Shown: positions 13,588 through 39,716, counted from the stretch's first letter. The stretch is DNA of 64,000 nt from Gemmatimonadota bacterium (GCA_039586795.1 JBDHJS010000034.1:1-64000); one strand, 5' to 3'. The notes: a model not told the origin generated them from the sequence alone. Numbers and translations: made by a program.

Positions 13588-13596
13588 CGCCGTTAA

Positions 13597-14029: not shown

Positions 14030-14108
14030 CACATTTCAGGAATGGTGGACGATCATGAAGATAGACGGCACACCATGTCACTCGCGCGTGCGGAATGGGA
14101 GGTACGGG

Positions 14109-14252
14109 ATGAGGTCCGCGTTTCTGCTGTCCGTGGTTTCGGTTGTCGTACTTGGCCTATTCGGTCTGGTGCGGTCGACGCCGCAAGAAACAGACACGAA
14201 GCAGCCTGATGAGAAGATGAGTGACGAGGAGAGCACTCTCTTCGTAGGATAG
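14109..14252 (+). CDS. Small (47 aa) single-pass membrane or exported protein
   Basis: GGAGGT SD just upstream of ATG 14109; MRSAFLLSVVSVVVLGLFGLVR hydrophobic helix, acidic tail ending LFVG. Confidence 0.65.
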   Translation: MRSAFLLSVVSVVVLGLFGLVRSTPQETDTKQPDEKMSDEESTLFVG

Positions 14253-14284
14253 CTTCTGCTTGACGAGAAGATTTTGCAGGTTGG

Positions 14285-15094: not shown

Positions 15095-15239
15095 ATGCTG
15101 CGCAAGGTAATCCGCCTCAGCTTATCCTGTATGGGCCTCCACGCTTGCCCTCTGGCCGCAACGGATCCAGTTTGGCCCACTGAAAGCTAGAGGGCGACCT
15201 CTGATTTTGGAACCACCCACGAAACTCCAGGAGGCGAGG

Positions 15240-20605: not shown

Positions 20606-22957
20606 ATGAAGCGAATTTCCTTCTTGCAGCGCCTTCGCGCACTGATCGCTGGCGGACGTAAGCCAGGAACGGGAGAGATTAGCGGTCCCGAGTCGCGTTA
20701 CCGCCGACTGTTCGATGGTCTACCGCTGGGCCTATATCTGACTTCTCCTGACGGCACGATCATCGACGTGAATACCGCTGCGGTTCAGCTGCTGGGCTAC
20801 CCAGACCGCGAAGCCCTCATGAAGGCCAACGCCTTCGACATATTCGCCGACCGCGGTATGCGTGCCGACCAGGTGAAAGCCCTTGAAGAAGAAGAGCTGA
20901 TACGCGGCTATGAAGTCCAGCTGCGCTGCTACGATGGGACCCTAATCTGGGCCCTCGACTATGCGCGGACGGTGAAGGACTCCCTTGGGCGGGTGAAGTT
21001 CTATGAGGGCGCGCTCGAGGATATCACCGAACGCAAGGCTGCCCGCGAGCAGCTGAAGGAAACGAACGAGACGCTTCAGGCGCTCGTTGGCGGTTCGCCG
21101 CTGGCCATCATCTCGCACGATCTCGATGGGAATGTCTTGAGCTGGAATCAAGCCGCCGAGTCGATCTTCGGCTGGTCGCAGCAGGAGGTAGCCGGGAAGC
21201 CACTCCCAATCGTCCCTGACCACGAGTGGGACGACTTTGTGCGAATGATGCGACTGGTTGCACAAGGCGAGACGATTACGGCCTCGGACCTCCACCGCAA
21301 GCGGAAGGACGGGTCGACCGTAATCACTTCAGTAAGCGCGGCGCCGCTGCGAAATGAGGACGGGAGCGTAGCGGGCGTACTCGGCATGTTCGCCGACCTC
21401 ACCAAGCGAAGAGAAGCCGAGGAAACTCAACGGCGACTGGCCGAGATCCTCGAGGGCACGCCCGACCTGGTAGGCATCGCTTCGATCGATGGACACGGCA
21501 TATATCTGAACCCAGCCGGATGCCGTATGCTGGGCGTGGAGTTAGAAGAGAGTACGGACCCGAAACTGGTCTGGGAGTATCATCCGCCGGAGTACGCGGA
21601 ACTGATTCGCAACGTGGCTCTCCCTAGTGCGATCAGCGATGGCTCGTGGACCGGCGAAGTCGTCTTCGCGTCGGCCGACGGTCGCGAGATACCGACGTCG
21701 ATGGTGATGATCGCACATCGAACCGATGACATAGCAGACTATATTTCCGTAATCGCTCGTGACCTCACAGAGCAAAAGTGGCTGGAGGATCGCGTTCGTC
21801 AGGCTCAGACGATGGACGCCATCGGGCGGCTGGCCGGCGGAATCGCGCACGACTTCAACAATCTCCTGACAACGATCATCGGTCACAGCGACCTGCTGCT
21901 TCGCTTTCTCGCGGATGAGCAGGCGCGTGACGATGTAGCATCGATAAAGGAAGCCGGTCAGCGTGCCGCGACTCTGACAAGTCAACTGCTGGCGTTCAGT
22001 CGGCGACAGGTCCTGCAGCTAAAACCACTGGATCTCAACAGCGTCATAGGCGATATCGGCTCTCGACTCAAGGAGATGGTGGGCAGCAACATCGAACTGG
22101 CAACGGTTCTCGACGGGACAATCGGCCGCGTCAAAGCAGACAGCGTGCAGATGGAGGAAGTCATCTCGGCATTGGTTGAGAACGCCTGTGAAGCAATGCC
22201 AGACGGCGGGGTACTCACGCTCGAGACCGCCGATGTCGAGTTAGCTCGCGATTCGGCCAAGCACCTCGGTGTCGCGCAGCCCGGGCGTTACGCTGTGCTA
22301 TCCGTCACTGACACCGGTCTCGGGATGGATGAGGAGACAAAGGCAAGGATCTTTGAACCGTTCTTCTCGACCAAGAAAGAGGTCAAGGGGACCGGTCTCG
22401 GCCTCCCTACCGTGTACGGGATCATCAAACAGAGCGGCGGCGAGATCTGGGTCTCCAGCGAACCGGCCAGCGGTACGACTGTCAGCATCTATCTCCCGGT
22501 TATCGTCGCCGAACGCGATGCGCAAACCACCGGCGTGCCCGTTATCGACGGCCAACTCGACTACGACCGCGAGACCATCCTTCTCGTGGAAGACGAACCC
22601 GCCGTTCTCAATCTTGCAGGCCGCGTACTACGCGCCCACGGCTTTTCCGTGATCGAAGCACACGATGGCGTCGAGGCACTCGAAGCTCAAAGGAACTACG
22701 ACGGAACCATCGATCTGCTCATCACCGATGTCGTCATGCCGAGGATTGGCGGCCCGGAATTGGCCACACGGATGATCGGGCTGCGGCCGGAATTGCGCGT
22801 TATCTACATGTCAGGCTACACCGACAATAAGACGGTCCGCGAAATGATGGCCGACCGAAGTACATTCTTCCTGCAGAAACCGTTCACTCCCTCAGCTCTC
22901 GCCGCTATCACGAAACGCGTGCTCGAGAACGATGTCGAGGATAGCAAGGCCGGCTAA
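20606..22957 (+). CDS. Cytoplasmic hybrid sensor histidine kinase (3x PAS - HisKA - HATPase - REC)
   Basis: Three PAS/PAC units; GGIAHDFNNLL, DTGLGM, FEPFFSTK, GTGLGL; REC LLVED...DVVMP...KPF. Confidence 0.95.
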   Translation: MKRISFLQRLRALIAGGRKPGTGEISGPESRYRRLFDGLPLGLYLTSPDGTIIDVNTAAVQLLGYPDREALMKANAFDIFADRGMRADQVKALEEEELIRGYEVQLRCYDGTLIWALDYARTVKDSLGRVKFYEGALEDITERKAAREQLKETNETLQALVGGSPLAIISHDLDGNVLSWNQAAESIFGWSQQEVAGKPLPIVPDHEWDDFVRMMRLVAQGETITASDLHRKRKDGSTVITSVSAAPLRNEDGSVAGVLGMFADLTKRREAEETQRRLAEILEGTPDLVGIASIDGHGIYLNPAGCRMLGVELEESTDPKLVWEYHPPEYAELIRNVALPSAISDGSWTGEVVFASADGREIPTSMVMIAHRTDDIADYISVIARDLTEQKWLEDRVRQAQTMDAIGRLAGGIAHDFNNLLTTIIGHSDLLLRFLADEQARDDVASIKEAGQRAATLTSQLLAFSRRQVLQLKPLDLNSVIGDIGSRLKEMVGSNIELATVLDGTIGRVKADSVQMEEVISALVENACEAMPDGGVLTLETADVELARDSAKHLGVAQPGRYAVLSVTDTGLGMDEETKARIFEPFFSTKKEVKGTGLGLPTVYGIIKQSGGEIWVSSEPASGTTVSIYLPVIVAERDAQTTGVPVIDGQLDYDRETILLVEDEPAVLNLAGRVLRAHGFSVIEAHDGVEALEAQRNYDGTIDLLITDVVMPRIGGPELATRMIGLRPELRVIYMSGYTDNKTVREMMADRSTFFLQKPFTPSALAAITKRVLENDVEDSKAG

Positions 22958-24165
22958 CTCGTCCGCAGGGCTATCTCATCCAATACAAACTCGGCAAACG
23001 GAATCGCACACGTAAAGGCGGGTGATACCGCATTCAGTATGTGGAACGAGCGGTCATCGCCCTCGACCACGAAATCGGTCACCAACTTGTAGTTCTCGAT
23101 GTCTACGAGCTGGGCACGAATACCCGCTGGCCCCCAGCGACGGAACTGACCGGGCCACACGCCGTCCACGAGCGACCCTGCACGCCTCACGAGATACCGT
23201 TTGTAGTACTTGGGTAGCTCACGCAACGCCACGCTGCGGAATTTTGCCCGGTTGCCCACGAACATGCGGCCTTCCAAGCGCGCGATCTGTACGAATTCAC
23301 CCGCGTTGAAACCCTGCAGACCGCTATACTGTTCGCGCCACAGCGCCGGTACCGCAGTAGGCCCAACCGTCACCGCGCCATCAACCTTCACCGTGAAATG
23401 CACACCTAAGAACGGCATCGCCAGGTCCGGGACCGGGTAGACGTTCGTACGCAATGGCGGCGCGCTCGGGTCAGCGTACAGATAGAGCCCCTTGAAAGGC
23501 AAGATGTGATAGCGTTCGGAGAATCCGAATGCGCGTGCGAGCTGGTCGGCGTACAGTCCGCCAGCGTTGACGACGTAGCCCGCCTCCATACTCCCCGCGC
23601 TCGTCTTGACCGTACTCCCGTTCCGACCCAAGTACGCTACACCAGTTCGAACCTCCACCCCAATACGCCTCGCATCGTCAACAAAAGCGCCAACCACCTG
23701 GGAAGGATCGACCGTAGCCGTTGAAGGCGAATAGAGAGCATACTCGTGCGTTCGAACGCGAGGTTCTATCTCGCGAGCCTCGGCAGCCGTGATCCGCTGC
23801 AGCTCAACTCCGTTGACCTTACCACGCTGAAGCAACTCGTCCAACACCGGCACTTCATCTGCATCACGTGCGACCACCAGCTTGCCGCACCGATTGATGC
23901 TCAAGTCCCCTTCATCGCAGTAGTCTTGAAGTCGCGCGTTGCCATCACGCGTGAAACGAGCCTTGAAGCTATCGGCGTCGTAGTAGAACCCCGCGTGCAG
24001 GACGCCGCTGTTGCGCCCGCTTGCGTGTATGCCGCAGCGCTCTTCCTTCTCGAGAAGGACCACGCTGCAGTCAGGGTGGCGTCGCTTGGCCTCAATGGCG
24101 ATCCGCAGGCCGATTACGCCGCCACCAACGATCAGAAAATCAGGTGAACACTGAACACTGGACAT
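22954..24165 (-). CDS. lhgO: L-2-hydroxyglutarate oxidase (FAD-dependent)
   Basis: IVGGGVIG, HASGRNSGVLHAG.YY, PFLGVHFT, AGIRAQ, NAVSPAFT. Confidence 0.88.
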   Translation of the reverse strand: MSSVQCSPDFLIVGGGVIGLRIAIEAKRRHPDCSVVLLEKEERCGIHASGRNSGVLHAGFYYDADSFKARFTRDGNARLQDYCDEGDLSINRCGKLVVARDADEVPVLDELLQRGKVNGVELQRITAAEAREIEPRVRTHEYALYSPSTATVDPSQVVGAFVDDARRIGVEVRTGVAYLGRNGSTVKTSAGSMEAGYVVNAGGLYADQLARAFGFSERYHILPFKGLYLYADPSAPPLRTNVYPVPDLAMPFLGVHFTVKVDGAVTVGPTAVPALWREQYSGLQGFNAGEFVQIARLEGRMFVGNRAKFRSVALRELPKYYKRYLVRRAGSLVDGVWPGQFRRWGPAGIRAQLVDIENYKLVTDFVVEGDDRSFHILNAVSPAFTCAIPFAEFVLDEIALRTS

Positions 24166-24238
24166 TAGGCATGGAACGTTGAAGTAACTGCCAACGGTGA
24201 ACTGGCTAAACCTCTAACATCTGGCGCCGTGGGGCAAC

Positions 24239-24269
24239 AAGAAAGGGCGCTGCCGAAAAGCAACGCCCT
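24239..24269 (-). terminator. Rho-independent terminator downstream of cstA
   Basis: Minus strand AGGGCGTTGC-TTTTCG-GCAGCGCCCT-TTCTT. Confidence 0.7.
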
Positions 24270-24279
24270 CGCAAATCTC

Positions 24280-24314
24280 TCAATGTCCCATGCTCAGTGC
24301 TCAGTGCTCAATGT
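24280..24314. repeat. Degenerate heptamer tandem repeat overlapping the cstA stop
   Basis: tcaatgt cccatgc tcagtgc tcagtgc tcaatgt. Confidence 0.6.
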
Positions 24315-26035
24315 TCCCCTGCCATCGCTTGCTTGAGCGTCACTGGCTCCGGTCCCACTTCTTCCAGCCAAAACGCCCGCGCCGCCTCGATCGACAGCAT
24401 CAGACCCAGTGCAAACAGCGCGATCGAGATGCCGCGAATGATCATCGGACCCTCTTGAAGGGTTAGCATGACCAGGGCGCTCATCGTCATCGCCAGCATG
24501 AAGGCCATCGGCAGGCCAGCGAACAGCCAGGTACGCCCGGTCCGCTTGAGCCACACCGTTACTGCCAACAGCGCAAGCGCTGCCAGCAGCTGATTCGTCG
24601 CTCCAAACACCGGCCACACCGCGCGCCAGGCCGGCTGTACTGCACCCGTAACGGGGTCGGTGTACTGCACGAAAACCATGAAGGCCGGCAGTAATAGCGT
24701 TAGAACCGTCGCTACCACGCGGCTCCTGGCGTCGTTCTTATCCCACTCGAAGGCCTCCTGAACCACGTAGCGGCCCAGTCGCGTGCACGTATCCAGCGTC
24801 GTGAGCAGGAAAGTCGACAGCGCCAGGAGGCCGAAGTGCGCCCCAAACCGGGCGGGGATACCCAGGGTCGATAGAAACTCTCCAATGCCGCCGGCGTAGA
24901 TCGTGATCGGTGTCTGGCCGAACGCGTTTGCACCCCAGGGCAGGATGACCACCGTCGCCAGGGCGATCACCGCCACGACACCTTCGATGAGCATTGCTCC
25001 GTAGCCGACGCGCTTCGTGTCCGTCTCACACTGCACCTGCTTCGACGTCGTTCCGCTCGCCACGATCGAGTGGAAACCAGAGCACGCACCGCACGCCACG
25101 GTGATGAAGAGGATAGGGAACAGCGGCCCAAGGTGCGCCACACCCAGTCCCGTCACTTCGCTCGGCGCCACCAGCGCCGGCCATTTATGAGAGACCGCAA
25201 CAGCTCCCGTAATCCCACCGATCAGCAGGCCCAAGCCCGCGCCCAGCACCGAGAGGTAGAGCAACCAGCTCGACAGGTAATCACGAGGCTGCAAGAGGAT
25301 CCACACCGGCGTGATCGCCGCGATCAGGCAATAGAATAGAAGGACGACGTTCCACGAGTTCTTCTCGGCGCCAGCGATCCCCGGCAACAACCCGCCCTCC
25401 ACGGCGGTCAAGTCGCCGATCCAGATCGCCAGCAGGAGAAGCGGCAGAAAGACGAACGTCGCGGCCTTTATGCCCAGACCCCGGCGGTACGTCATGTATC
25501 CCATCGCCAGGGCGAGCGCCACGAAGATGATGGCCGAGATCGCGACGCCACTGCCGTTCATCTCCGCGTTGACGAATGTCGCCGCCGTCAGATCCATGAA
25601 AACGACGATGACGTAGATCAGAGCCAGCCAGATGAACGCGAGGAACAACTTGTAGGCCCGGGGCGTGATGTACTTGCGGGCCAACTCGGCCACCGATCGG
25701 GCTTTGTGCCGAACCGATGCGACCGTCGAGCCAAAGTCGTGCACACCGCCCACGAAAACCGAGCCCGCGACGATCCAGATCAGCGCCGGGATCCAGCCGA
25801 AGAACAACCCCGCCAGGATCGGACCCACGATCGGCCCCGCCCCGGCGATCGACGAGAAGTGATGGCCCAACAGCACCGGCGTCCGGGTCGGTACGTAGTC
25901 CACCCCGTCGTATTGGCCCTCCGCCGGCACCAGGTGGCGGTCGTCCAGACCGAACACCCGGCCCATCCACCCCCCGTAAACCCGGTAGGCGACAAGAAAC
26001 AGGATGATTACGGCGATCAGAATCCCTGCGAGCAT
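24308..26035 (-). CDS. cstA: Carbon starvation protein A family transporter
   Basis: DGVDYVP, GHHFSSIAGAGPIVGP, LLQPRDYL, ACGACSGFHS, WPVFGATNQLLA. Confidence 0.95.
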   Translation of the reverse strand: MLAGILIAVIILFLVAYRVYGGWMGRVFGLDDRHLVPAEGQYDGVDYVPTRTPVLLGHHFSSIAGAGPIVGPILAGLFFGWIPALIWIVAGSVFVGGVHDFGSTVASVRHKARSVAELARKYITPRAYKLFLAFIWLALIYVIVVFMDLTAATFVNAEMNGSGVAISAIIFVALALAMGYMTYRRGLGIKAATFVFLPLLLLAIWIGDLTAVEGGLLPGIAGAEKNSWNVVLLFYCLIAAITPVWILLQPRDYLSSWLLYLSVLGAGLGLLIGGITGAVAVSHKWPALVAPSEVTGLGVAHLGPLFPILFITVACGACSGFHSIVASGTTSKQVQCETDTKRVGYGAMLIEGVVAVIALATVVILPWGANAFGQTPITIYAGGIGEFLSTLGIPARFGAHFGLLALSTFLLTTLDTCTRLGRYVVQEAFEWDKNDARSRVVATVLTLLLPAFMVFVQYTDPVTGAVQPAWRAVWPVFGATNQLLAALALLAVTVWLKRTGRTWLFAGLPMAFMLAMTMSALVMLTLQEGPMIIRGISIALFALGLMLSIEAARAFWLEEVGPEPVTLKQAMAGEH

Positions 26036-26348: not shown

Positions 26349-27596
26349 ATGTTTGATGCTGTTATCGCCACGCTACCCGAAGAGTGGCAGATGGTCGCCA
26401 TGATCGCGACGTTTCTCGTCAACTGGATTCCCGATGCGCAGGCGGCGCTGGTCTCCTACGTGTGGAATCTGGGTTCGGGGAGCGGCACGCTGATGAGCCG
26501 CATCCTTCTCCTGCTCCCAGCCCTGCTGGTGGTCGTTGGGATCTGGTCCACGATGGTGGCGATGTACACCCTGCCCTTCCGCTCACACCGCCGGGAGTTC
26601 ATGACGGCGCTAGTGATGCTGTGGTGGGAAGTCGGACGCAGCATCTGGCTGTTCTGGGTGGGCTTCGTTCGCTTCGCCTGGATGCTCGTCGGCTGGCTCT
26701 GGGGGCTGGTGAAGCTGACGCTCTCTCTGTCTTTCAAGGCGATCCGCTACGTGTTCCTCACGCCGTTCGCCTTCATGGATTGGCTGGGCCGCAAGTACTT
26801 CAAACCTGGCGTCCCGTGGTTCGCCTTCGTGCTGACGATTGCGTGGTGTGCCCTCGAGTCGCTGATCTTTACGTACGCGTTGCTGCCCCTCGTCTCGGAG
26901 GTCTTCTACGACCTATCCGGCGTCGAGGCCAGGAACGTCATCGCGCCGATTCTGTTCTTCTTCCTGTTCGCGGTGATCACCGGCAGTTACGCGATGGTGC
27001 AGGCGCTGTCTGACGCCATGCGGGACAAGGACTACAAGGCGCTGGTGCAGCTCGTGATCGTCGAGTTCTCGGTGATGTTCTTCGAGGTCATCTTCCTGTA
27101 CCGCGAGCTCATCGATGCGCTCACGCCCTGGATTGCCTCGCAGACCGGCGTACGTCTCGGATTCGTGTCCACGCTCGCCTTCGCCTCGATCGGATGGATC
27201 GGCATTCGGGCGATGACCTGGTTCTTCTTCGCGCGTTATGGCACGCCCGCCCTGCTCGCAGTCGTAGCACGACAGACGATCGGCGTGGAAAGCTCGGGCA
27301 TTGAGCCACGACCGCAGGCGCCGGAACCGGATTGGTGGCGCGGGCCGATCAACGCCCTCAAGGCGGAGCGCGAATGGTTCCGCGAGAGCTCTCGTGAGCT
27401 CCTCGAGCTTCTCTCGCTTCCCGTCCTCCAGATTCTGGCCTGCGCCATCAACTGCGCGACGACCGTCATCACCTCACAGACGGCGTTCAAGCTGCCGTTC
27501 ACGAGGCTGGATGAAGTGATGATCCAGGACTCGCTAGCGCAGATACTCAAAGTCCGACGGCCGTTTGCGACTCAGGCCGAGCACGGCAACCGTTAA
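26349..27596 (+). CDS. Uncharacterised polytopic, Trp-rich membrane protein
   Basis: 415 aa, about 7-9 hydrophobic segments, strong GC3 codon bias, AGGA SD-like motif; no family motif recognised. Confidence 0.85.
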   Translation: MFDAVIATLPEEWQMVAMIATFLVNWIPDAQAALVSYVWNLGSGSGTLMSRILLLLPALLVVVGIWSTMVAMYTLPFRSHRREFMTALVMLWWEVGRSIWLFWVGFVRFAWMLVGWLWGLVKLTLSLSFKAIRYVFLTPFAFMDWLGRKYFKPGVPWFAFVLTIAWCALESLIFTYALLPLVSEVFYDLSGVEARNVIAPILFFFLFAVITGSYAMVQALSDAMRDKDYKALVQLVIVEFSVMFFEVIFLYRELIDALTPWIASQTGVRLGFVSTLAFASIGWIGIRAMTWFFFARYGTPALLAVVARQTIGVESSGIEPRPQAPEPDWWRGPINALKAEREWFRESSRELLELLSLPVLQILACAINCATTVITSQTAFKLPFTRLDEVMIQDSLAQILKVRRPFATQAEHGNR

Positions 27597-27615
27597 CCGA
27601 ACGCGGGTGATAGCC

Positions 27616-28392
27616 ATGAATGTTCGTAATAGACTGCGTGCCCGGCGATTCGCGGTTCCAGCGGCAGCCATGCTCCTGCTGCTCGCCAGCGCCTGCGTGC
27701 CGGAAGGTGCGAACCAGGAGCCGCGGATGGTTCTCTTCGTCGGCATCGATGTGAGTGGCTCGTTCCAGAACACCGGGAACTACAACGACGCGCTGCGTTT
27801 CACCGCTCACTACATCTACGGCCACCTCGAGAACATGGGCGACCTCGAGGAGCCGGCGGTTCTGTTCGTTGGTTCGATCGGTGGAGAGCGGCCCGGCCAG
27901 ACCAAGTCGTTCCATCCGGTCCACGACTTCGCGGGCAAGACGGTGGATGAGATCGACGCGGATCTCCACAGCTGGTTCGAGCCCGACGACGCGTTCACCG
28001 ACTTCAATGTCTTCTTCGACCGCGTCGCGGATTTCGTACAGCGACAGAACTTGACGCTGAAGCCGATCACGATACTCGTGGTCAGCGACGGCGTGCCCGA
28101 CGTCACATCACGCGCTGACGCTGACGACCGCTACCGAACCATCAACCTCGAGCCTCTCGAGTACCTCTCGAGGAACGTGACCGTGAGGCTGATCTATCCC
28201 AATCCAGAGGTCGCCGTGCGCTGGGAGCAGGACATCCCACGCAAGCGCGTGCGCATGTGGACGGTGGATGACGAGGTGATGGTCGGCTGGCGCTCCCAGG
28301 TCACTCTGGGTCTGCCGGTCGAGGAGCAGGATCTGCTCTGGCAGTGGATCAAGGAAAACGTGGACTTCAGAGTGCGGCGTAGCGTGCTCTAG
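27616..28392 (+). CDS. Lipoprotein with a vWA-like MIDAS motif
   Basis: Lipobox LLASA-C; LFVGIDVSGS (DxSxS), AFTDF (T), ILVVSDG (D). Confidence 0.8.
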   Translation: MNVRNRLRARRFAVPAAAMLLLLASACVPEGANQEPRMVLFVGIDVSGSFQNTGNYNDALRFTAHYIYGHLENMGDLEEPAVLFVGSIGGERPGQTKSFHPVHDFAGKTVDEIDADLHSWFEPDDAFTDFNVFFDRVADFVQRQNLTLKPITILVVSDGVPDVTSRADADDRYRTINLEPLEYLSRNVTVRLIYPNPEVAVRWEQDIPRKRVRMWTVDDEVMVGWRSQVTLGLPVEEQDLLWQWIKENVDFRVRRSVL

Positions 28393-28422
28393 CCGCACAG
28401 ACTACATGATGGGCCGCGTGGC

Positions 28423-29670
28423 TCAGTCGGGTCCGCTAGGAGCCGCTGCGCCCGCGGCCTCCATCATCGTGGGAGCAGGCTGTCGGAGCTTCAGCGTCAG
28501 AAGAAAGGCCAGAGCAACGCCGGCCGAGGCGGTAAAGAACGGCGCCGAGGCGCCCGAGAAGTCGAAGGCCGCCGCCCCCCACAAAGGCCCAACCACCCGC
28601 GCCACGCCCCCAAAGAACTGGTTGATCCCCAGCGTGCTGCCCTGAACTTCCGGCGCCGTTGATCGTGAGATCAGTGCCGCTAACGGCGGGAAAAGCGTTC
28701 CAGTACCGCCGGCGATGAAGGTTAGTGCAAACGCCAACGAGACCCAGTCGTCGGTGAACGCAGCGATGACCAGGCCGACGCCTAAACTCACGCCACCGAT
28801 TCGGGCCACCCCCGTCTCGCCCAGCCGCCGCACCAGCGGACCCACCGTGATCCCCCGCACCAGCATCGAGACCATGCCCACGTATACAAACACGTAGCCG
28901 ACGTTCGTCTCATCGATCCCGAACCGCTGATTGAGAAACAAAGGGAAGATGGCCGTGATCGAAGTAAAAGCGCCTATCCCCAGGAAGTAGATCGCGATCA
29001 TGATATTGATCGGCTCCCGCATCGCCGTCCTCATGACCTCACTGAGCGGCGGTACCGAGAGACTCGCCGCGGCGTTCGCGGCCCGTTGCACCTTCGGTTC
29101 GGGCAGAAACCGCAGCGCCAGAACCAGGTTGACCAGGCAGAGCCCGGCCGCCACGAAGCCCGGCGCCCGGTGACCGCCCCATTGAAAGGCCCACGAGCCG
29201 ATCGCCGGGCCCACCATGAACGCCGCCCCTGTAGCCGCGGACAGCCAGCCCAAGACTTGAGCGCGTTTCTCTGGCGCCGTCGTATCCGCCACGTAGGCCT
29301 GTGCGACGGCGATGGTTCCACCCGACGCGCCCTGCACGATCCGCGAGATGAACAGCACGGCGACCGTCGTAGCCAGCCCGAACAGGACGTACGAGACGGC
29401 TGAGAACGCCAGCCCGGCGAGGATGAGCGGCCGACGACCGTAGTGATCCGAGATCTTGCCCCAAAACGGCGTGGAGAGCAGCTGGGCAAACGAAAAGGAA
29501 GCGATCAGCGGGCCCACCATCCAATCCCCTGCTCCGAACTCGACGGCGTAGAACGGGAGGAGCGGCAAAACGATGCCGAACCCAATCATGTCCACCAGCA
29601 TGGTGCCGATCAATACGAACACCGATGCCAGGTCGATATCAGGTCTTTCTGGTTTGACGTATGCGCTCAG
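28423..29670 (-). CDS. MFS transporter, DHA1/TetA-like
   Basis: DMIGFGIVLPLLP, GKISDHYGRRP (motif A), AYVADTT...R. The frame extends to a CTG at 29670; GTG 29622 is the alternative start. Confidence 0.92.
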   Translation of the reverse strand: MSAYVKPERPDIDLASVFVLIGTMLVDMIGFGIVLPLLPFYAVEFGAGDWMVGPLIASFSFAQLLSTPFWGKISDHYGRRPLILAGLAFSAVSYVLFGLATTVAVLFISRIVQGASGGTIAVAQAYVADTTAPEKRAQVLGWLSAATGAAFMVGPAIGSWAFQWGGHRAPGFVAAGLCLVNLVLALRFLPEPKVQRAANAAASLSVPPLSEVMRTAMREPINIMIAIYFLGIGAFTSITAIFPLFLNQRFGIDETNVGYVFVYVGMVSMLVRGITVGPLVRRLGETGVARIGGVSLGVGLVIAAFTDDWVSLAFALTFIAGGTGTLFPPLAALISRSTAPEVQGSTLGINQFFGGVARVVGPLWGAAAFDFSGASAPFFTASAGVALAFLLTLKLRQPAPTMMEAAGAAAPSGPD

Positions 29671-29876
29671 CGTTCGGCTTCCCGAGGGTCATAGCACCCA
29701 TAAAGACGCGGGGCTGGACCCCGCTCTAGACTCTCACGCGTCATGTTATAGTCGGATTGTATCGGGCGGGAAAGCCCGTAGGCCTAGGCAAAACTCCTCA
29801 ACGTCTATTCAACACGCACCCACCACCAAACGTTGAGGAGTCTGCAAGAGCTACGGAATTCTCCTTGAGGTGTGTG

Positions 29877-31274
29877 TCAGGCGTCCAGTCCGGCCAACGA
29901 CCCGCCGCCGTGCCGCGCCCAAATCGGCTGTCGTGGCGCCTGTCTCTCGAAGAAGAAATGCCGCTCACCAAACGCCGGCTCCAGGTCGTCCAGCCACGTG
30001 GCCTCAGGGTCGAAACGGGCGAAGAACGGCTTCCCCACCCATTCCGGGATACGGGCCTGCAAGAACCTCAACACAAACACCCGCTCCCCGTGCACCGGCG
30101 CCACGCCTTCGACCAGCACCTTACCCGGCAGCGACGACATCGTTGGCCCACGAACCGAGCGTCCCAGTCCTGATTGCCGGCGGTACGCTCCGTTGAAGAT
30201 CTCCAATGCTTGCGTCAACGGAACCTCGAAGTACCGCTTCGGGCCGGTGTCTCGCTCGACGAACATGTAGTACGGGACGGCACCCAACCGCTCCTGGCTT
30301 CTCCACAGCTGGACCCACACCCCAACCGAGTCATTGACGTGCCGAATCAAGGGGGCCTGGCAACGAATCACGGCTCCCGCATCCTGGATCCGGCGAATCG
30401 CCGCCTCGGCGATCGGCGTCTCCAACTCCCTCGGATGACTGTAGTGCGCCATGAACGCCACGTGCCGGCCGGCTTTCCTCACATCCTGGAACAGCTGCAG
30501 AACATCGTCCGCGTCATCGTCCGTGACGAACCGTTGCGGCCAGTATGCCGTCGACTTGCTGCCTATGCGGATGCTCTCGATGTGTGACAGAGCCGGGTCC
30601 AGCAGCGGTTCGATGTAGCGCCGCAAGACCGTCGACTTCATCACCATCGGGTCGCCCCCCGTCAACAGCACGCTCCTGACTTCCGGGTGGTTTTTCAGGT
30701 AGGCCACCCAGCCGGCGGATTCGCGACCCGCAAACTTCAACTCCTCGATCCCCACGAACTGCGCCCAGCGGAAGCAATAGCTGCAATAGGCGTGACACGT
30801 CTGGCCCGGCGCCGGAAACAGCAGCACCGTTTCCCGATACTTGTGCTGAACCCCCGGTAGCGGCTCGTCCTTCACGGTCGGCACATTCAGATCCATCTGG
30901 CCCGCCGGGTGCGGGTTCAGCCTCGACTGAATGTCCCGCGCCGCCGCCCGAATCTCCTTCTCGGACGCGCCGCGCCGAATCAGCCGGAACATGCGTGAAA
31001 AATCACGCAGGCCCAACATCTCGGGCTGCGGGAATGTGAGCTGGTAGATCGGATCGGCGGGGATGTTCGACCAGTCGATGAGTTCTTCAACTACGTAGTT
31101 GTTCACCCGGAAAGGCAGCACGGCAGACACCGCCTTCATCGCGTCCCGATCCCCCTGCGACAACCCCTGAAGCTGTGGAAGTCCGTCGATGTCCTTCCGA
31201 GAATACGCCCGATACTTGCGGGCTACCGTCCGATCGATAGCGCTCCTCCTCTCTGGTGTAGCGCGATAGAACAT
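29877..31274 (-). CDS. KamA-family radical SAM/PLP 2,3-aminomutase (substrate uncertain)
   Basis: HKYRETVLLF, CHAYCSYCFR (CxxxCxxC), LLTGGDP, IRIGSK, C-terminal PGK PLP lysine. Confidence 0.92.
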   Translation of the reverse strand: MFYRATPERRSAIDRTVARKYRAYSRKDIDGLPQLQGLSQGDRDAMKAVSAVLPFRVNNYVVEELIDWSNIPADPIYQLTFPQPEMLGLRDFSRMFRLIRRGASEKEIRAAARDIQSRLNPHPAGQMDLNVPTVKDEPLPGVQHKYRETVLLFPAPGQTCHAYCSYCFRWAQFVGIEELKFAGRESAGWVAYLKNHPEVRSVLLTGGDPMVMKSTVLRRYIEPLLDPALSHIESIRIGSKSTAYWPQRFVTDDDADDVLQLFQDVRKAGRHVAFMAHYSHPRELETPIAEAAIRRIQDAGAVIRCQAPLIRHVNDSVGVWVQLWRSQERLGAVPYYMFVERDTGPKRYFEVPLTQALEIFNGAYRRQSGLGRSVRGPTMSSLPGKVLVEGVAPVHGERVFVLRFLQARIPEWVGKPFFARFDPEATWLDDLEPAFGERHFFFERQAPRQPIWARHGGGSLAGLDA

Positions 31275-31901
31275 GAGCCTGCCCTCTTCGGTTATCAGCC
31301 ATCCTGTTCGGGGTTCTCCAACGGGCGCCCATCCGGCGCCTCGCTTTGCGTCTGCCCGACAGGCTGGGCTTCGAACCGTTTGACCCGGGTGGTCTCCCGG
31401 CGCTCACGCAGCCTGGCGGCGCCAACCCGGTTCTCAACGACGACACTCCATGTGAGCTGCACTACATTGGCAGCCTCAGAGCGGCGCAGGGGCTAATCCT
31501 CCCCTGGGCCCGCGTCAGCTCGCTGGCCATTCACACCGCGCCGGTTCTCACTGTGAACTGTCACAAATTTACGGCCCCAAACGCTTCCAAGCAAAGGGCG
31601 GCACCCCCCGTCTTGGGGAGCCTGTCTGGGAACGCCGCGCTCCTCGAAACGCCCTATGGGCTGAAAAGCCAGCAATGGTGCGGGAAACCAGCGAAAGCGC
31701 GGTTGTCCCGGTAAAGCCCCCGCTTGTGACTTTCTGTCCCGAGGCGGCCCTCTGTAGGCGTAGCGCCAACGAACGTAACTCACTATAATAAAACAAGTTA
31801 GACAGTCCTGGCTTCAAGGCCTGGAAGATGCTCAACGTGTTTAAGTCAGTCGTTTTTCCCATACGATCAGCGTCATCGACCGGAGATGAGGGAAATAAGA
31901 C

Positions 31902-33263
31902 ATGAGCAACGAGAGTCAGAAGAAGCAGGGCGGTGAGGACCTGAATCCGTTCCACATCGCTCAACAGCAATTCGACACCGCGGCACGCTACATCCCGGAC
32001 CTGAAAGCGGGTCTGGTGGGTTTCCTGAAGGCGCCGAACCGAATGATCACGGTGGAGTTCCCCATCGAGACCGAGGAAGGCGAAGTGCGGAACTTCGTCG
32101 GATACCGTTGCCTGCACAACAAGGTGCGTGGTCCGGGCAAAGGCGGTATCCGCTACCATCCAGACGTCTCGGCGGACGAGGTACGGGCGCTGGCCTCCTG
32201 GATGACGTGGAAGTGCGCGGTCCTCGATGTGCCCTTCGGCGGAGCCAAGGGCGGGATCATCTGCAACCCGAAGGAGCTCGCACAGGACGACGTCCGCAAG
32301 ATCACACGCCGCTTCATCTCCGAGCTAGGCGACTCGATCGGCCCGTACACGGATATTCCGGCACCCGACGTGAATACGAACCCGCAGACGATGGCGTGGA
32401 TCTACGACACCTACGACATGATGCACAAAGGTAAGAACAACCTGGGTGTCGTGACCGGCAAGCCCGTCAACATGGGCGGATCGTTGGGTCGTAACGAGGC
32501 GACATCTCGTGGCTGCCTGTTCTGCACCGAGAAGGCGATTGAGCTCGGCGTAGTTCCGGGGCTCACCTCGTTGAAGGGCGCCACCGTGGTAGTCCAGGGA
32601 TACGGCAACGCCGGCGCGATCGCCGCGCACCTGTATCACGAGCAGGGCGCCAAGATCATCGCGGTCAGCGACTCCCGAGGCGGCATTGTGAACCCCGAGG
32701 GCCTCGATCCCGACGCCGTGATCGAGCACAAGAAGAAGACGGGCTCGGTCCTCGGCTTCCCGGGTACAAAGGAAGTGAGCAACGACGAGCTGCTGACCAT
32801 CGAGTGCGACGTCCTGATTCCGGCCGCACTGGAGAACGTGATCCGTGGCGACAACGCGGCGGAAATCAACACCAAGGTGATCGCCGAGGCCGCCAACGGT
32901 CCGACGACACCGGCAGCCGACAAGATCCTGTTCGATCGTGGCATCCCCGTGCTGCCCGACATCCTGGCCAACGCCGGTGGGGTGACGATCAGCTACTTCG
33001 AGTGGGTGCAGAACAACGAGAACGAGCAGTGGGAAGAAGACGAAGTCAACGGCAAGATGAAGGCGAAGATGCTCAAGTCAACCGAGGCGGTTGTTGAGAC
33101 GCAGAAGCGGATCAACGCCTCGTTGGCCGAGCTGGACGCCGCCCGCAAGCAGCGCGGCCTCGACGGCGACAAACTGGTCGAGATCGACCTGCGAACCGCC
33201 GCCTACGTGCTGGCGATCAGCCGTGTGGCAGAGGTGACGCTCGAGCGTGGCATCTGGCCGTAA
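31902..33263 (+). CDS. gdhA: Glu/Leu/Phe/Val dehydrogenase, glutamate-dehydrogenase type
   Basis: GPGKGGIRYH, MTWKCA, PFGGAKGG, DIPAPDVNT, QGYGNAG, EAANGP, NAGGVTISYFEW. Confidence 0.92.
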   Translation: MSNESQKKQGGEDLNPFHIAQQQFDTAARYIPDLKAGLVGFLKAPNRMITVEFPIETEEGEVRNFVGYRCLHNKVRGPGKGGIRYHPDVSADEVRALASWMTWKCAVLDVPFGGAKGGIICNPKELAQDDVRKITRRFISELGDSIGPYTDIPAPDVNTNPQTMAWIYDTYDMMHKGKNNLGVVTGKPVNMGGSLGRNEATSRGCLFCTEKAIELGVVPGLTSLKGATVVVQGYGNAGAIAAHLYHEQGAKIIAVSDSRGGIVNPEGLDPDAVIEHKKKTGSVLGFPGTKEVSNDELLTIECDVLIPAALENVIRGDNAAEINTKVIAEAANGPTTPAADKILFDRGIPVLPDILANAGGVTISYFEWVQNNENEQWEEDEVNGKMKAKMLKSTEAVVETQKRINASLAELDAARKQRGLDGDKLVEIDLRTAAYVLAISRVAEVTLERGIWP

Positions 33264-33278
33264 ATCAGCAAACATTAA

Positions 33279-33360
33279 TCAGTAGCCAGTCGTCGGTGAT
33301 CGGTAGGTGGGGTCTTCCCCGCCTACCGATTACTGGCTACCGATCACCGGTCACCGACTA
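33279..33360. repeat. Heptamer-periodic palindromic intergenic element
   Basis: tcagtag ccagtcg tcggtga tcggtag gtgggg-tctt-ccccgc ctaccga ttactgg ctaccga tcaccgg tcaccga. Confidence 0.75.
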
Positions 33361-33371
33361 GGGCAGGCACT

Positions 33372-34774
33372 ATGGCAAACACGAAGACAAAGGACAGACC
33401 AAAGCCGTATCTCTTCCCGGAGTTCTGCAAAGCCTGTGGGCGCTGTATCTCGGCATGCCCAAAAGGCTGTATCGCCATGGGGACGGAGATCAACCCGGCG
33501 ACGGGCTTCACGCCGGTGGTTCTGAACCTCGACGTCTGCAACGGCTGTGGACTGTGCTTAAGCGCTTGTCCCGAGCCCTACGGGCTCATGCCGGCTCCCG
33601 AACAGGTGGATTTCGAGCTGCTCGATCCAGCTTCCATGTTCGGTGAGCGGGTGACGACGGCTCCAACGCCGACCGCCATCGACGATGAACGTATTCCGTT
33701 ACCGCAACTCGAACCGCTGATCCTGAAGGGCAACCACGCCTCGGCCGTCGGCGCACTGCTCTCCGGCTGCCGCCATTTCTTCGGCTACCCCATTACCCCG
33801 TCCACCGAGGGCGCCGAGCTGCTGGCTCGGCTGCTTCCCCAAGTGGACGGAGTATTCCTGCAAGCGGTCAGCGAAGTCGCCGCGGTAAACATGATGTACG
33901 GGTGCGGCGGTGCGGGGATGCGATCCATGACTTTCACCTCCTCACCGGGATTCAGCCTGATGTTGGAGGGTATCTCCTACATGGTCGGGTCCGAGGTGCC
34001 GGGCGTCTTCTTCAACGTCATGCGCGGCGGTCCCGGGCTCGGCAACATCGGACCGGAACAGGCCGACATCAAACTCGTCTGCCGCGGCCTCGGCCACGGC
34101 AACACGCACGCGCTCGTGCTGGCGCCTTCGACGCCGCAGGAGATGCTCGACCTCACCATGGATGCCTTCGACCTGACCTTCAAATACCGCAACCCGGTGA
34201 TTATGGTCAGCGATGGCTACCTCGGCCAGATGACCGGGCGCGTCGAACTGCCCTCCTACATGGTCAAACCCGGCCTGCCCGAATGGGCGGTCTACGGCGA
34301 CGAGATGCACCGCGGCAATCTGATTTGCTCGATCATTCTCAACGAGCCGGACCTTGAGAAGCACAACATCCACCTGAACGAGAAGTACGATCGCATAGCC
34401 GCAAACGAACAGCGTGCCGACCTCTTCTACTGTGATGATGCCGACTGGGTGATCATCGCCTGCAATACGCCGGCGCGCATGGCGAAGGGCGCCGTACAGC
34501 AACTGCGTGATCAAGGCGTGCCCGTCGGCCTCTTCCGGCCGGTCTCGCTCTGGCCCTTCCCCATCGATGCGCTGCTTCCGGTAGTCGAGCGAGCCAAAGG
34601 GCTGATCATTGTCGAAGCCAGCGCCGGACAACTGGAAGATGAGGTACGATTGGCACTCAGCCACGCTGGTGTCCAATCGCTGCCGCCGATTGAGAGAGTA
34701 CAACGCTACGGCGGAATTCTCCCGCTGCAGGCCGAGATCGTGGATGCCGTCACCGCGACCGTTGGGGGTGCCGC

Positions 34775-34778
<4 letters not shown>
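33372..34778 (+). CDS. 2-oxoacid:ferredoxin oxidoreductase, ferredoxin(delta)-alpha fusion (Vor-like)
   Basis: Two CxxCxxCxxxCP motifs, then KGNHA, FGYPITPSTE, TSSPGFSL, MRGGPGLG. Confidence 0.93.
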
Positions 34779-36202
<1,424 letters not shown>

Positions 36203-36314
36203 AACCGGTCCTTTGGCCAGGACCCCGTAGTCTACCCGGCGGGCCCATCTTCCCATCGCTCGCCTCGCATCTTTCTCTTTACAGTCCCGGATAGACTCAT
36301 TGGAGGACGTACCG

Positions 36315-37439
36315 ATGTTCATCGGAGTACCACGCGAAACCCACCGATACGAGAACAGAGTAGGGCTTTCGCCATACGCCGTCTCTCGGTTGACGCACTA
36401 CGGGCATACCGTAGTCGTCGAGAATGAAGCTGGCGCGGCGGCGAAGTTCTCGGACCAGGAATACGAGGCGGCCGGAGCTCAGATCGTATACAGCACCGAG
36501 GAAGCCTATAAGCGAGCCGATATCGTCTGCCGGGTCGGCCTCCTTTCTTCCGAAGAGCTGGACCTGCTGAAGCCGGGCTCAACGATTTGCGCCTTCCACC
36601 ACCTGGCCGTTTGTCCGCACGAAAACGTCGAGCGATTGATGGAGCTCGAAACGACGATCATCGGGTACGAGATCATCGAGGACATTCACGGCGATCACCC
36701 GGTCCTCGCGCCGATGAGCGAGATGGCCGGGCAGATGGCTATGCACCTGGCCTCCCACTACATGCAAACGTCCAAGGGCGGCAGAGGAACGTTACTGGGA
36801 AGCGTAGCCGGTGTCGCGCCGCCGACCGTACTCATCCTCGGGGCTGGCTCCGTCGGCTGCAGCGCCGCCCGGCGCGCCGTCGCGTCCGGCGTCCACGTGA
36901 TCATCGTCGACGAGGACCTTCGCAAGCTGAGATCGTTGAGCCGTGAGTTCTCCGGGCAGGTGGTGACGGTCGTCGCCGGCATGGCGCAACTGGAGCGTCT
37001 CACCTCGATCGCCGACGTGATCATCGGCTCGATCCTGATTCCCGGCGCCCACGCGCCTATCCTCGTAACCGAGGAGATGGTGAAAGCGATGAAGCCGGGC
37101 AGCGTGATAGTCGACGTATCCATCGACCAGGGCGGCTGCGTGGAGACCAGCCGCCCCACGACGCTGGATGGGCCGACGTATGTCATGCACGACGTGGTGC
37201 ACTATTGCGTGCCCAACATGACGGCGAATGTCCCGCGGACGGCCTCGCGGGCGCTCGCCAACGCCGTCCTGCCGATTCTCAAAGAGATCATGCGCAATGG
37301 CGTGGCCGGCGCGCTTCAAGACGACCCGGGCTTGAGGGCCGGCGTCTACCTGTACCAGGGCCAGATGGTGAACGAGAAGGTTGGGGGAATCCTCAACATA
37401 CCCACTGTATCGCTAGAGACACTCGTTGAGGGAAAGTGA
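36315..37439 (+). CDS. ald: Alanine dehydrogenase-like protein (divergent)
   Basis: GGAGG SD; IGVPRE..ENRV, LAPMSEMAG, LGAGSVG, DVSIDQGGC.ETS, HYCVPNM. Confidence 0.85.
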   Translation: MFIGVPRETHRYENRVGLSPYAVSRLTHYGHTVVVENEAGAAAKFSDQEYEAAGAQIVYSTEEAYKRADIVCRVGLLSSEELDLLKPGSTICAFHHLAVCPHENVERLMELETTIIGYEIIEDIHGDHPVLAPMSEMAGQMAMHLASHYMQTSKGGRGTLLGSVAGVAPPTVLILGAGSVGCSAARRAVASGVHVIIVDEDLRKLRSLSREFSGQVVTVVAGMAQLERLTSIADVIIGSILIPGAHAPILVTEEMVKAMKPGSVIVDVSIDQGGCVETSRPTTLDGPTYVMHDVVHYCVPNMTANVPRTASRALANAVLPILKEIMRNGVAGALQDDPGLRAGVYLYQGQMVNEKVGGILNIPTVSLETLVEGK

Positions 37440-37445
37440 CGATAG

Positions 37446-38685
37446 ATGAACTGGCTCGATGACTATAAATCCAAGCTGAGGAGTCCGGCCGAAGCCGTCT
37501 CCGTTATCGACAGCGGCGACCGCGTCTACTACGCCGGTAACGCCGCCATACCGCAGACCCTCGTCCAGGCGCTCGCCGACCGCAAGGACGAGCTGACAGA
37601 CGTCCAGGTCAACCACGTGTTGCTGGTCGGCAAAGACCCGCTGTCCGCCCCGGAGATGGAGGGTCACTTCAGGCATAACTCGCTGTTCGTCGGACCGGCG
37701 GACCGCAAGGCCGTGAACGAGGGGCGTGGCGACTACGTCCCCATCTTCCTCTATATGATCCCGCGGTTCTTCCGCGAGCGCATCGTGCCCGTCGACGTCG
37801 CGATGATCCAGTGCTCACCGCCGGACGAACATGGGTTCATCAGCATGGGCGTCGAGACGCTGGCTTCCGCCGCCGCCTGCCAGATGGCGAAGACGGTGAT
37901 CGCCCAGGTCAATGACAAGATGCCCCGCGTGCTGGGCGACTCCTTCATGCACGTCAATCGTGTGGACGCCATCGTCGAGGCCACCGAACCGCTACCCGAA
38001 CTGCAGCCCCGGCCGGCCACCGACATCGAGAAGTCGATAGCCGCCAACGTCATCCCGCTCATCGAGCCGGGGGCGACGATCCAGATGGGGATTGGCGGGA
38101 TTCCGGACTCGGTCTGGGAGTCGATGGAGGGCAATCTAGAGCTCGGTATCCACACCGAGATGATCTCCGACGGCGCGATGCGCGCCATCCAGCGCGGGGT
38201 CGTCACCGGCACACGGAAGAACCTGCATCCCGGAAAGGTCGTGATCACGTTCGCCCTGGGAAGCGGGGAGCTCTACGACTACCTCGACAACAACCCGTTC
38301 ATCGAGGCCCACCCGGTCGACTACGTCAACGATCCGTTCATCGTCGGCCAGAACGACAACATGGTGGCCGTCAACTCGGCGATCGAGGTGGATCTGACCG
38401 GACAAGTCTGCTCCGACTCGATAGGTCCGTACATCTACTCGGGCTTCGGGGGGCAGGTCGATTTCATCCGCGGCGCGGCGCGGTCCAAGGGTGGCAAGCC
38501 CGTCATCGCGCTCCCCGCCACAGCCAAGGGCGGCGAGATGTCCCGCGTGGTGCCGTTCCTGAAGGAAGGCGCCGGAGTCGTGCATGAACCTCCGCGAGCG
38601 AGCCGAGGCGTTGATCGGCATCGCGGACCCCAAGTTCCGCGAAGAGCTGGAGTACGCGGCGAAACAGCGCGGCTTATTGACTTAG
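37446..38685 (+). pseudogene. Acetyl-CoA hydrolase/4-hydroxybutyrate CoA-transferase family, frameshifted near the C-terminus
   Basis: QMGIGGIP, GIHTEM (catalytic Glu), SGFGGQVDFIRGA. After GAGVV (38582) the conserved tail MNLRERAEALIGIADPKFREEL... is in the +1 frame, with TAG at 38683-38685. The T.R.DV..VVTEYG segment is missing. Confidence 0.85.
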
Positions 38686-38762
38686 CAACTCAGAAGTCGG
38701 ACGTTGAGTCCGGACGCCACCGCGTTCATGCCTTCAACTCCGCAAAACACAGAGGATGACGA

Positions 38763-39716
38763 ATGAGGAGAATCCTCGTCACAGGTGCACTAGGCCAGAT
38801 CGGTGCCGAGCTGGTTCCAGCGCTGCGCGCGAAGCTCGGCAATGACAACGTCGTCGCATCGGACATCCGCATGCCCGCCGACCCGCCCAAACCAGACGAA
38901 CCTTTCGAATACATCGACTGTACCGTCCGGCGAATGATCGACGAGGTCGTCCACAAATACGACATCGGAACGGTCTATCACATGGCCTCGCTTCTTTCGG
39001 CCGTGGCCGAGGAGAAGCCGCAGGTGGCCTGGGACGTCAACATGGGCGGCCTCTACCGGACGCTGGAAGTCGCGCGAGAGAACAGCTGTTCCGTCTTCTT
39101 CCCCAGCTCGATCGGCGCCTTCGGCCCAACAACGCCGCCTGACAACACGCCCCAGGACACGCTCCAGCGACCCAACACCATGTACGGCGTGACGAAGGTG
39201 GCCGGCGAGCTGCTCTGCGACTACTACTTCAAGCGCTTCGGAATCGATACCCGCGGTCTTCGCTATCCCGGACTCATCTCTTACGTCGCGCCAGCCGGCG
39301 GCGGCACCACCGACTACGCTGTCGAGATCTTCTACGAGGCGATCCGTCACAAGCGCTACACCTGCTTCCTGGCGCCCGACGCTTGCCTCGACATGATGTA
39401 TATGCCCGACGCCGTGAAGGCATCTATCGACCTGATGGAAGCCGACCCGGACCGCCTGGTTCACCGCAACGCCTTCAACGTCACGTCCGTAAACTTCACG
39501 CCGGAACAGCTGGCGGAAGAGATACGCAAGCATATCCCGGACTTCACGATCTCCTACGAGGTCGATCCGGTCAGACAGGCGATCGCCGACTCGTGGCCGA
39601 ACTCGCTGGACGACAGCGCGGCAAGGAACGAGTGGGGTTGGGAGCCGGAATACGACCTCGAGATGATGACCCGGGACATGTTGGAGAATCTCGAGAAGAA
39701 GCTGACGAGGGATTAA
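38763..39716 (+). CDS. L-threonine 3-dehydrogenase, extended-SDR type
   Basis: VTGALGQIG, PSSIGAFG, YGVTK, GGGTTDYAV, MMYMPDA, RQAIADSWP. Confidence 0.88.
   Translation: MRRILVTGALGQIGAELVPALRAKLGNDNVVASDIRMPADPPKPDEPFEYIDCTVRRMIDEVVHKYDIGTVYHMASLLSAVAEEKPQVAWDVNMGGLYRTLEVARENSCSVFFPSSIGAFGPTTPPDNTPQDTLQRPNTMYGVTKVAGELLCDYYFKRFGIDTRGLRYPGLISYVAPAGGGTTDYAVEIFYEAIRHKRYTCFLAPDACLDMMYMPDAVKASIDLMEADPDRLVHRNAFNVTSVNFTPEQLAEEIRKHIPDFTISYEVDPVRQAIADSWPNSLDDSAARNEWGWEPEYDLEMMTRDMLENLEKKLTRD

Follow-up and report, generated by a model that had tools for sequence, protein, structure and literature searches.

In the lysine 2,3-aminomutase (LAM) of Clostridium subterminale, Asp293 and Asp330 are the residues that we take to bind the epsilon-amine of lysine, and glutamate 2,3-aminomutase (Eam) presumably carries a Lys/Asn pair at the corresponding positions. 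BlsG (TIGR04468), an arginine aminomutase, and EpmB (TIGR03821) share the radical SAM/PLP aminomutase core. A further member of this enzyme group is IdnL4, which has been linked to beta-glutamate in papers cited here and below from excerpts. The excerpt of PMC11284099 reports that feeding shows beta-glutamate as an intermediate, that IdnL3 is its decarboxylase and that disruption of idnL4 confirms a role in 3-aminobutyrate supply; according to the same excerpt, the expected IdnL4 activity was not observed in vitro. The IdnL4 assignment is repeated in the excerpts of PMC11350588, where IdnL3 selects beta-glutamate, and of PMC9230918, where feeding results are said to disagree sometimes with the clusters. 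An IdnL4 homologue outside a cluster is mentioned in the part of PMC9169493 that was available.

The window analyzed here is a stretch of 64,000 nucleotides from a Gemmatimonadota bacterium (GCA_039586795.1 JBDHJS010000034.1:1-64000). At 29877..31274 (-) it encodes a protein of 465 amino acids (P0001), an IdnL4-type radical SAM/PLP enzyme of the KamA family and probable glutamate 2,3-aminomutase, referred to below as the window aminomutase. The reading frame has no internal stops, and the alignments of its relatives begin at residue 1. An earlier note on this DNA had described the radical-SAM and PLP motifs as complete, which we could confirm. The KamA-type cluster motif CxxxCxxC (C160/C164/C167) is present at 30774..30797 (-), and a MAFFT alignment places the predicted PLP lysine K385 (30120-30122, (-)) on the LAM GK lysine and the PYY motif in register with KamA-type enzymes. 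R169 (30768..30770, (-)) aligns with the LAM arginine following the cluster motif, which presumably binds the alpha-carboxylate; the roles of R134 and K337 of LAM are assumed likewise.

Sediment metagenomes ranked highest among the DNA data sets containing the region. One DNA-run contig is identical to 30219-31065 (0 differences) and this run may be the source sample, while RNA runs contained short pieces of the region in small shares only.

A Pfam search with the window aminomutase gave zero matches at E 0.001, and the ESM Atlas returned KamA-named clusters only. LAM of C. subterminale (2A5H) was the only significant PDB sequence match (E 2.7e-25). It was also the best structural match of an AlphaFold2 model built from a 20-sequence alignment (mean pLDDT 79.7), with a Foldseek E of 4.5e-15 and, in VIA-align, a Z of 26.5 and an rmsd of 3.5 over 309 residues (the following entry reached Z 12.6); this model cannot judge pocket geometry, since the region of the cluster loop is badly predicted (pLDDT below 50 at residues 161-180). 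The fold, CxxxCxxC, GGD, PYY and the lysine at the PLP position are common to both proteins, whereas the window aminomutase has insertions in the N-terminal region, does not have the GGGGK loop and is 25-32% identical to LAM-type proteins. Because just one cysteine lies outside the cluster motif, it would also lack a zinc site of the type that we assume for LAM.

To place the two substrate-binding positions, we compared several alignments. The block from PYY to F is free of gaps against PDB 2a5h in phmmer and hmmsearch, and likewise when the clade and LAM profiles are aligned with hhalign. HMMER pairs V284-R-P-Y-Y-I-Y-Q-C-D293 of 2A5H with A332-V-P-Y-Y-M-F-V-E-R341, and D342 and F349 with L294 and F301. 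By alignment, R341 (30252-30254), located in the motif PYYMFVERDTG (residues 334-344, 30243..30275, (-)), is the equivalent of Asp293. The Arg that the earlier note had put there by eye was therefore correctly placed; the other possibility it had named, that the D of ERD occupies the Asp293 position, does not apply, as D342 falls on L294. Arg is found in this column in 120/120 closest homologues of the window aminomutase and in 120/120 homologues of the IdnL4-type protein P0122 (115 by regex, 5 read separately), both sets being near relatives and non-independent samples. The loci L001-L080 had been chosen partly by the pattern YYMFVERD and were left out of the motif counts. R341 is retained in members in which E340 is replaced by Ala/Pro or D342 by Asn/Val. 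LAM, EpmB, AblA_like_2 and BlsG rows have Asp in the D293 column; Lys occupies it in 120/120 Eam-like proteins. A literature search on these residue numbers returned nothing relevant.

The Asp330 position lies within residues 368-385 (SGLGRSVRGPTMSSLPGK, 30120..30173, (-)), where the HMMER and hhalign alignments end just short of D330. MAFFT sets T378 (30141-30143, (-)) on the D330 column, which is variable (S/T/V/A). The second candidate, S380 (30135-30137, (-)), is present in 119/120 closest homologues (one regex miss) and in 120/120 P0122 homologues. In the predicted model a strand at 378-381 is followed by a two-residue turn and a strand from 384, so that a hairpin precedes G384-K385. This predicted hairpin and the invariance of S380 make S380 more likely than T378 to be the true Asp330 equivalent. 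With either register the residue at this position is neutral, as the earlier note had read it. That note had used both positions as an argument about the pocket, of which the Arg part stands, but the neutral residue is not diagnostic, because BlsG also has Thr there. In BlsG, moreover, the PLP lysine is preceded by a short loop that resembles the hairpin of the window aminomutase; both BlsG and EpmB differ from it in the Asp retained at the 293 column. The parallel to Eam drawn in the note holds for the combination of a basic and a neutral residue (K/T in Eam-like proteins, Arg and Thr/Ser here) and for the predicted reaction, but not for close kinship: the window aminomutase is 24-26% identical to Eam-like proteins and sits on a separate branch.

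Scores against all six KamA-type NCBIfam models were below the cut-off. For TIGR00238 (KamA family) 114.8 bits were obtained compared to a curated cut-off of 199.2, which places the clade outside the curated model. The other five gave 112.6 bits vs 525 (TIGR03820, lysine 2,3-aminomutase), 107 vs 396 (TIGR03822, AblA_like_2), 91.8 vs 600 (TIGR04468, arginine 2,3-aminomutase), 91 vs 369 (TIGR03821, EpmB) and 86.2 vs 650 (TIGR04368, clostridial Eam). The clade is large: 8000/8000 scored database candidates passed, so it comprises at least 8000 proteins, and among the matches listed at least 594 pattern-matched GTDB stretches (594/599) encode a relative. The 80 GTDB loci that were kept belong to Gemmatimonadota, Acidobacteriota, Planctomycetota, Actinomycetota, Myxococcota, Bacteroidota and Pseudomonadota, with Gemmatimonadota being the closest named relatives among the matches listed.

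A fast IQ-TREE analysis of 53 rows picked by hand, with SH-aLRT support only, combined 31 ER[DN]TG proteins in one group (support 86, long-branch neighbours included) and set off LAM, EpmB, AblA_like_2, BlsG and the Eam-like proteins by a long branch (support 100). Six Eam-like proteins formed a clade of their own (100), placed among LAM and BlsG. The IdnL4-type subclade is nested inside the ER[DN]TG clade on a stem of 0.59 changes per column. Since the IdnL4-type clade and the Eam-like proteins are on separate branches, their Arg and Lys would represent two independent changes, and the basic residue at the D293 column looks convergent. Neither 5 + 301 genomes nor the 11 scanned of 120 homologues yielded a protein exceeding the Eam cut-off of 650; the Eam-like references themselves reach 573-632 bits (11 scanned 573-613; seed 632). 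Members of the Eam-like clade (L144, L145, P0244-P0363) have Lys/Thr at 293/330 and are often named lysine 2,3-aminomutase. The Eam-like gene of L144 is located, as judged by eye, between ATP-grasp-like and M20-peptidase-like open reading frames.

To connect the clade with IdnL4, we used a published 3-aminobutyrate cluster of Planomonospora parontospora JCM 3093 (BMQD01000040.1:18142-26977; PMC10662134, supplement 4), which according to the excerpt was selected with cblaster by the requirement for IdnL2, IdnL3 and IdnL4 matches. In this genome the window aminomutase matches contig 40:24085-25332, and an open reading frame of the stretch ends exactly at 18142. The genes of the stretch code for an AMP-binding protein, the aminomutase, a class I/II PLP enzyme, VinK and an AMP-binding protein. 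The stretch has a single KamA-type ORF, which shares 55.7% identity with the window aminomutase and reads PYYMFVERDTG. Among 33 pocket and cofactor positions, chosen by us according to their presumed roles in LAM, 32 are shared by the two proteins, the sole difference being position 378. A Streptomyces plasmid carries a comparable cassette with the order PKS, proline iminopeptidase, aminomutase (55.7%), PLP enzyme, AMP-binding protein and PKS, which by analogy is arranged like a starter cassette for a beta-amino acid. The PLP enzymes of the two cassettes are 66% identical. P. parontospora has three copies of the clade.

Outside the IdnL4 subclade, too, a clade member has an IdnL3-like gene (49%) beside it, on a plasmid of Amycolatopsis sp. 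AA4 (L088). The clade member follows genes for a Leu/Trp-dehydrogenase-like protein, a CoA-ester lyase, a MaoC hydratase and a PapA5-like acyltransferase (10984-17500) and is convergent with the IdnL3-like PLP enzyme; no PKS was present within the fetched stretch. The dehydrogenase was considered as a second link to glutamate dehydrogenase and rejected, as it is Leu/Trp-DH-like and not GDH.

The window aminomutase belongs to the same clade as the cassette aminomutases, is 54-57% identical to them (IdnL4 itself, from Streptomyces sp. ML694-90F3, was outside this comparison) and has the IdnL4-type motifs ER[DN]TG, RGPxMS...GK, HKY and CFRW. It differs in that its gene is outside the actinomycete subclade and stands alone, head-to-head with a glutamate dehydrogenase gene and without IdnL1/L2/L3/L6/L7, a PKS or an adenylation cassette beside it. 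An IdnL3 orthologue was not found in the window genome, where the best matches are 27-29% identical compared to 66% between true cassette members. Judged by sequence, the enzyme clade of IdnL4 is shared and the pathway is not. This existing link of the clade to glutamate had been missed in the earlier note.

Based on these comparisons we consider it likely that the window aminomutase interconverts L-glutamate and beta-glutamate (3-aminoglutarate) as a predicted radical-SAM/PLP enzyme of the IdnL4 type. The LAM fold, the cluster cysteines, the Arg at the Asp293 column, clade membership and gene context were observed. Glutamate chemistry is suggested because Arg occupies the D293 column in 240/240 homologues and Lys does so in 120/120 Eam-like proteins, because the clade holds the aminomutases of two beta-glutamate-using cassettes, and because the IdnL3-like gene is paired with a non-subclade member as well. 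The preference for an acidic substrate over lysine stated in the earlier note is borne out by the alignment, the IdnL4-clade link and the separate KamA with both aspartates described below, and can be narrowed to glutamate. The connection to IdnL4 runs via a cblaster match and the clade has no demonstrated in vitro activity; the substrate is a prediction, and the window gene is probably a new member of the IdnL4-type glutamate 2,3-aminomutases. By analogy with LAM chemistry, glutamate would form an external aldimine with PLP at K385, R169 would hold its alpha-carboxylate and R341, aided by S380, its gamma-carboxylate. The 5'-deoxyadenosyl radical would then abstract the C3 hydrogen, and the PLP-imine would shift from C2 to C3 in a LAM-type radical 1,2-imine shift.

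The gene is divergent from a glutamate dehydrogenase gene (gdh), as the earlier note had observed. This gene, at 31902..33263 (+), was assigned to the Glu/Leu/Phe/Val dehydrogenases of the archaeal-GdhA type (best NCBIfam model GdhA_Arch, 522 bits, below the cut-off of 750). Downstream of gdh, two genes of a 2-oxoacid:ferredoxin oxidoreductase (Vor/Kor type, best match VorB; 33372..36202, (+)) are followed on the same strand by alanine dehydrogenase-like, acyl-CoA:acetate CoA-transferase-like and NAD-dependent epimerase/dehydratase-family genes (36300..39716, (+)). A GG-N10-GC motif resembling sigma-54 promoters, whose function is predicted, points toward gdh at 31818..31832 (+). It is present in 16/16 aligned family intergenic regions, 88-130 bases from the gdh end in each copy, and rpoN is present in the window genome; on the aminomutase strand no motif of this kind is conserved in the aligned copies. 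An imperfect palindrome containing TGTGAC is conserved about 90 bases upstream of GG-N10-GC and could be an activator site. The window copy has a second palindrome, TGTGA-N4-TCACA-like; the two were seen at 31725-31740 and 31552-31565. Rfam detected no riboswitch in 28000-33500, c-di-AMP and Na+ types included, but merely a chance miRNA match (E 0.25). A sigma-70 scan gave 0 promoters, and one terminator-like hairpin (29708-29724) was found vs 2.1 expected by chance.

Downstream of the aminomutase, an MFS transporter gene on the same strand (28423..29622, (-)) adjoins it in most family genomes. Genes for an L-2-hydroxyglutarate oxidase, which scores over the cut-off, and a CstA-family transporter (22954-26035, (-)) are kept near the aminomutase in some relatives. 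An orthologue (67-77% identity) was detected in 22 of the 24 other family genomes; of the remaining two, one gave a LAM-type match only and the other nothing. In the sister family 0/16 genomes gave an aminomutase match, and a sample of 300 genomes of the phylum, from which the family of the window genome was excluded, contained 7 matches at E <= 1e-100. Because the ORF caller missed some known genes, the counts of neighbours are to be read as minima. With this reservation, gdh is divergent in 19/20 family genomes with enough upstream DNA (two more are cut by contig ends), and is present in the close Gemmatimonadota relatives L001, L002 and L046 among the GTDB loci. It was found in 0/77 GTDB loci outside this close group (flanks up to 8 kb) and in 0/7 phylum loci outside the family (1.5-kb flanks). 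Because the MFS gene is about equally well kept, the gdh link may be plain inherited synteny. Elsewhere the neighbours are mixed and include NRPS clusters, a Na+/H+ exchanger and the IdnL3-like gene. The argS gene is near the aminomutase in about 30 actinomycete loci (lower bound; e.g. L050:2640-4373, in Streptosporangiales-type genomes) and an MscS-type channel gene in 4/80 GTDB loci (lower bound).

If the enzyme acts on glutamate, net synthesis of beta-glutamate is about an even bet, salvage is somewhat less likely and other uses have a slight chance. In the window there is no nearby PKS cassette and the genome has no IdnL3 orthologue, so that beta-glutamate would most likely be a free end product here. 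It would be a stored anionic solute, and the reversible reaction could return glutamate to the adjacent dehydrogenase. Nocardiopsis halophila accumulates beta-glutamate according to the excerpt of PMC1224877, and the aminomutase gene is present in at least six Nocardiopsis loci, of species other than N. halophila. In the available part of PMC9337991, eam is described as a gene for osmoprotection that is associated with Na+ riboswitches.

Within the glutamate reading, the reaction might instead be the entry step for beta-glutamate catabolism under sigma-54 control, in which beta-glutamate would be converted to L-glutamate, by GDH to 2-oxoglutarate, by the oxidoreductase to succinyl-CoA, and then used in CoA transfer. 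We regard this as a tentative possibility. It is favored by the head-to-head gdh in 19/20 assessable family genomes, which heads a run of amino-acid catabolic genes behind the GG-N10-GC motif (16/16), and by the L-2-hydroxyglutarate oxidase and CstA-family transporter genes nearby in the window and in relatives. One family genome (G013) keeps gdh, but not the oxidoreductase genes, with the aminomutase; sediment metagenomes are the best DNA holders. However, the aminomutase strand has no conserved sigma-54-like motif among the aligned regions, gdh is found in 0/84 loci outside the family group, and another family genome (G017) keeps the aminomutase with gdh absent within 7 kb. In addition, a second GDH, 73% identical, is encoded elsewhere in the genome, and the substrate range of the oxidoreductase is putative, with VorB as best match. 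beta-Glutamate is presumably abundant in sediments, but our literature search for this found no supporting paper. In its full form, the salvage reading would make the locus a pathway of sediment bacteria with an Arg-type aminomutase run backwards, independent of clostridial Eam, feeding an environmental osmolyte into a sigma-54-controlled GDH/oxidoreductase/CoA-transferase operon. We hold this to be a little more doubtful again.

It is distinctly unlikely that the window aminomutase acts on another acidic or polar substrate (2-aminoadipate, glutamine or a modified glutamate) and that only the actinomycete IdnL4 subclade is glutamate-specific. The substrate of the IdnL4 subclade may differ, since its stem is long (0.59) and identity to the window aminomutase is only 54-57%. 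Position 378 differs consistently (V in 115/120 IdnL4-type proteins, S in 109/120 close homologues), and gene neighbourhoods are very mixed. Against this, the remaining 32 of the 33 chosen positions are identical, position 378 is variable and probably faces away from the pocket, and the IdnL3-like gene is paired with a non-subclade member. Aspartate is excluded as substrate, because a 2,3-migration returns aspartate for reasons of symmetry.

The window genome is 97.8% complete and contains two KamA-type genes. The second one (L081, G000:C20:5292-9227) encodes 363 amino acids, has kept both aspartates and scores 439 bits vs the TIGR03820 cut-off of 525. It is located between a D-Ala-D-Ala-ligase-like ATP-grasp gene and a GNAT gene, and most family genomes have orthologues. 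As the earlier note had stated for the window, neither efp nor epmA adjoins the window aminomutase, in which it differs from EpmB; efp is on contig C49, away from the aminomutase, and no EpmA over the cut-off was detected in the genome (the highest score, from a 510-aa frame, was 244 bits vs 287). BKACE was not found in this genome, with the positive control detected; PF09043 gave no match, and its control was equally silent. A lysine 2,3-aminomutase whose pocket is rearranged so that E340 or D342 would bind the epsilon-amine is highly improbable. In its favor, relatives go by the name "lysine 2,3-aminomutase" in databases, R341 has an acidic residue on either side and LAM is the only solved structural match. 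However, the scores are far below the LAM and EpmB cut-offs (113 bits vs 525, 91 vs 369), E340 and D342 are replaced in some members while R341 is constant, EpmA over the cut-off and BKACE are missing from the genome, which has a separate Asp/Asp KamA, and the partner decarboxylase of the macrolactam cassettes is, in the excerpts, beta-glutamate-specific.

The probable glutamate activity concerns a large cross-phylum clade that is filed as "lysine 2,3-aminomutase" or "KamA family", lies under every curated cut-off and is probably not lysine-acting. The clade already has a published glutamate assignment through IdnL4, biochemically unproven as far as the excerpts go; what is new here is the genomic setting, a head-to-head arrangement with gdh in the genomes of one family, and not the chemistry. 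IdnL4, the only functional anchor of the clade, is without in vitro activity in the excerpt, and stand-alone members offer alternative assay targets. Should glutamate activity be true, glutamate 2,3-aminomutases would have arisen a second time in bacteria, by convergence, and a gene would be assigned to bacterial beta-glutamate production or use. Should salvage be true as well, the clade of at least 8000 proteins from many phyla would be the principal means by which bacteria make and turn over beta-glutamate. Literature joining the aminomutase, Gemmatimonadota, beta-glutamate and GDH consisted of one preprint on synthetic carbon fixation (10.1101/2025.11.21.689712), whose excerpt names the enzyme as a needed, poorly known step; most subscription journals were outside the scope of the search, so the clade may be described there.

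Other KamA-like types and genes of the window were also noted. L130, from a Rhizobium etli plasmid, encodes an aminomutase of a sister type, 30% identical, in which Arg likewise occupies the Asp293 column; this type is common on rhizobial plasmids and in L130 lies near ectoine synthase and ATP-grasp genes. A third, long KamA-like type (730-800 aa) is represented by L138 (G044:C49) and absent from the matches of the window genome, with weak matches in G006, G008, G010, G012, G013, G016, G017, G018, G019, G021 and G024. The L138 protein carries Lys in the Asp293 column; it is a candidate for a further aminomutase of the glutamate type. In the CoA-transferase-like ORF at 37446-38759 (+), homologues align to residue 379 only, the Pfam C-terminal domain ends at position 110 of 154, and about 55 residues at its end appear to be in the wrong frame, possibly due to a frameshift, a deletion or an assembly error. 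At 26349-28392 (+), adjacent genes for a 415-aa membrane protein and a 275-aa predicted lipoprotein-like protein, both without a Pfam/NCBIfam match, are kept together in relatives at 66-70% identity.
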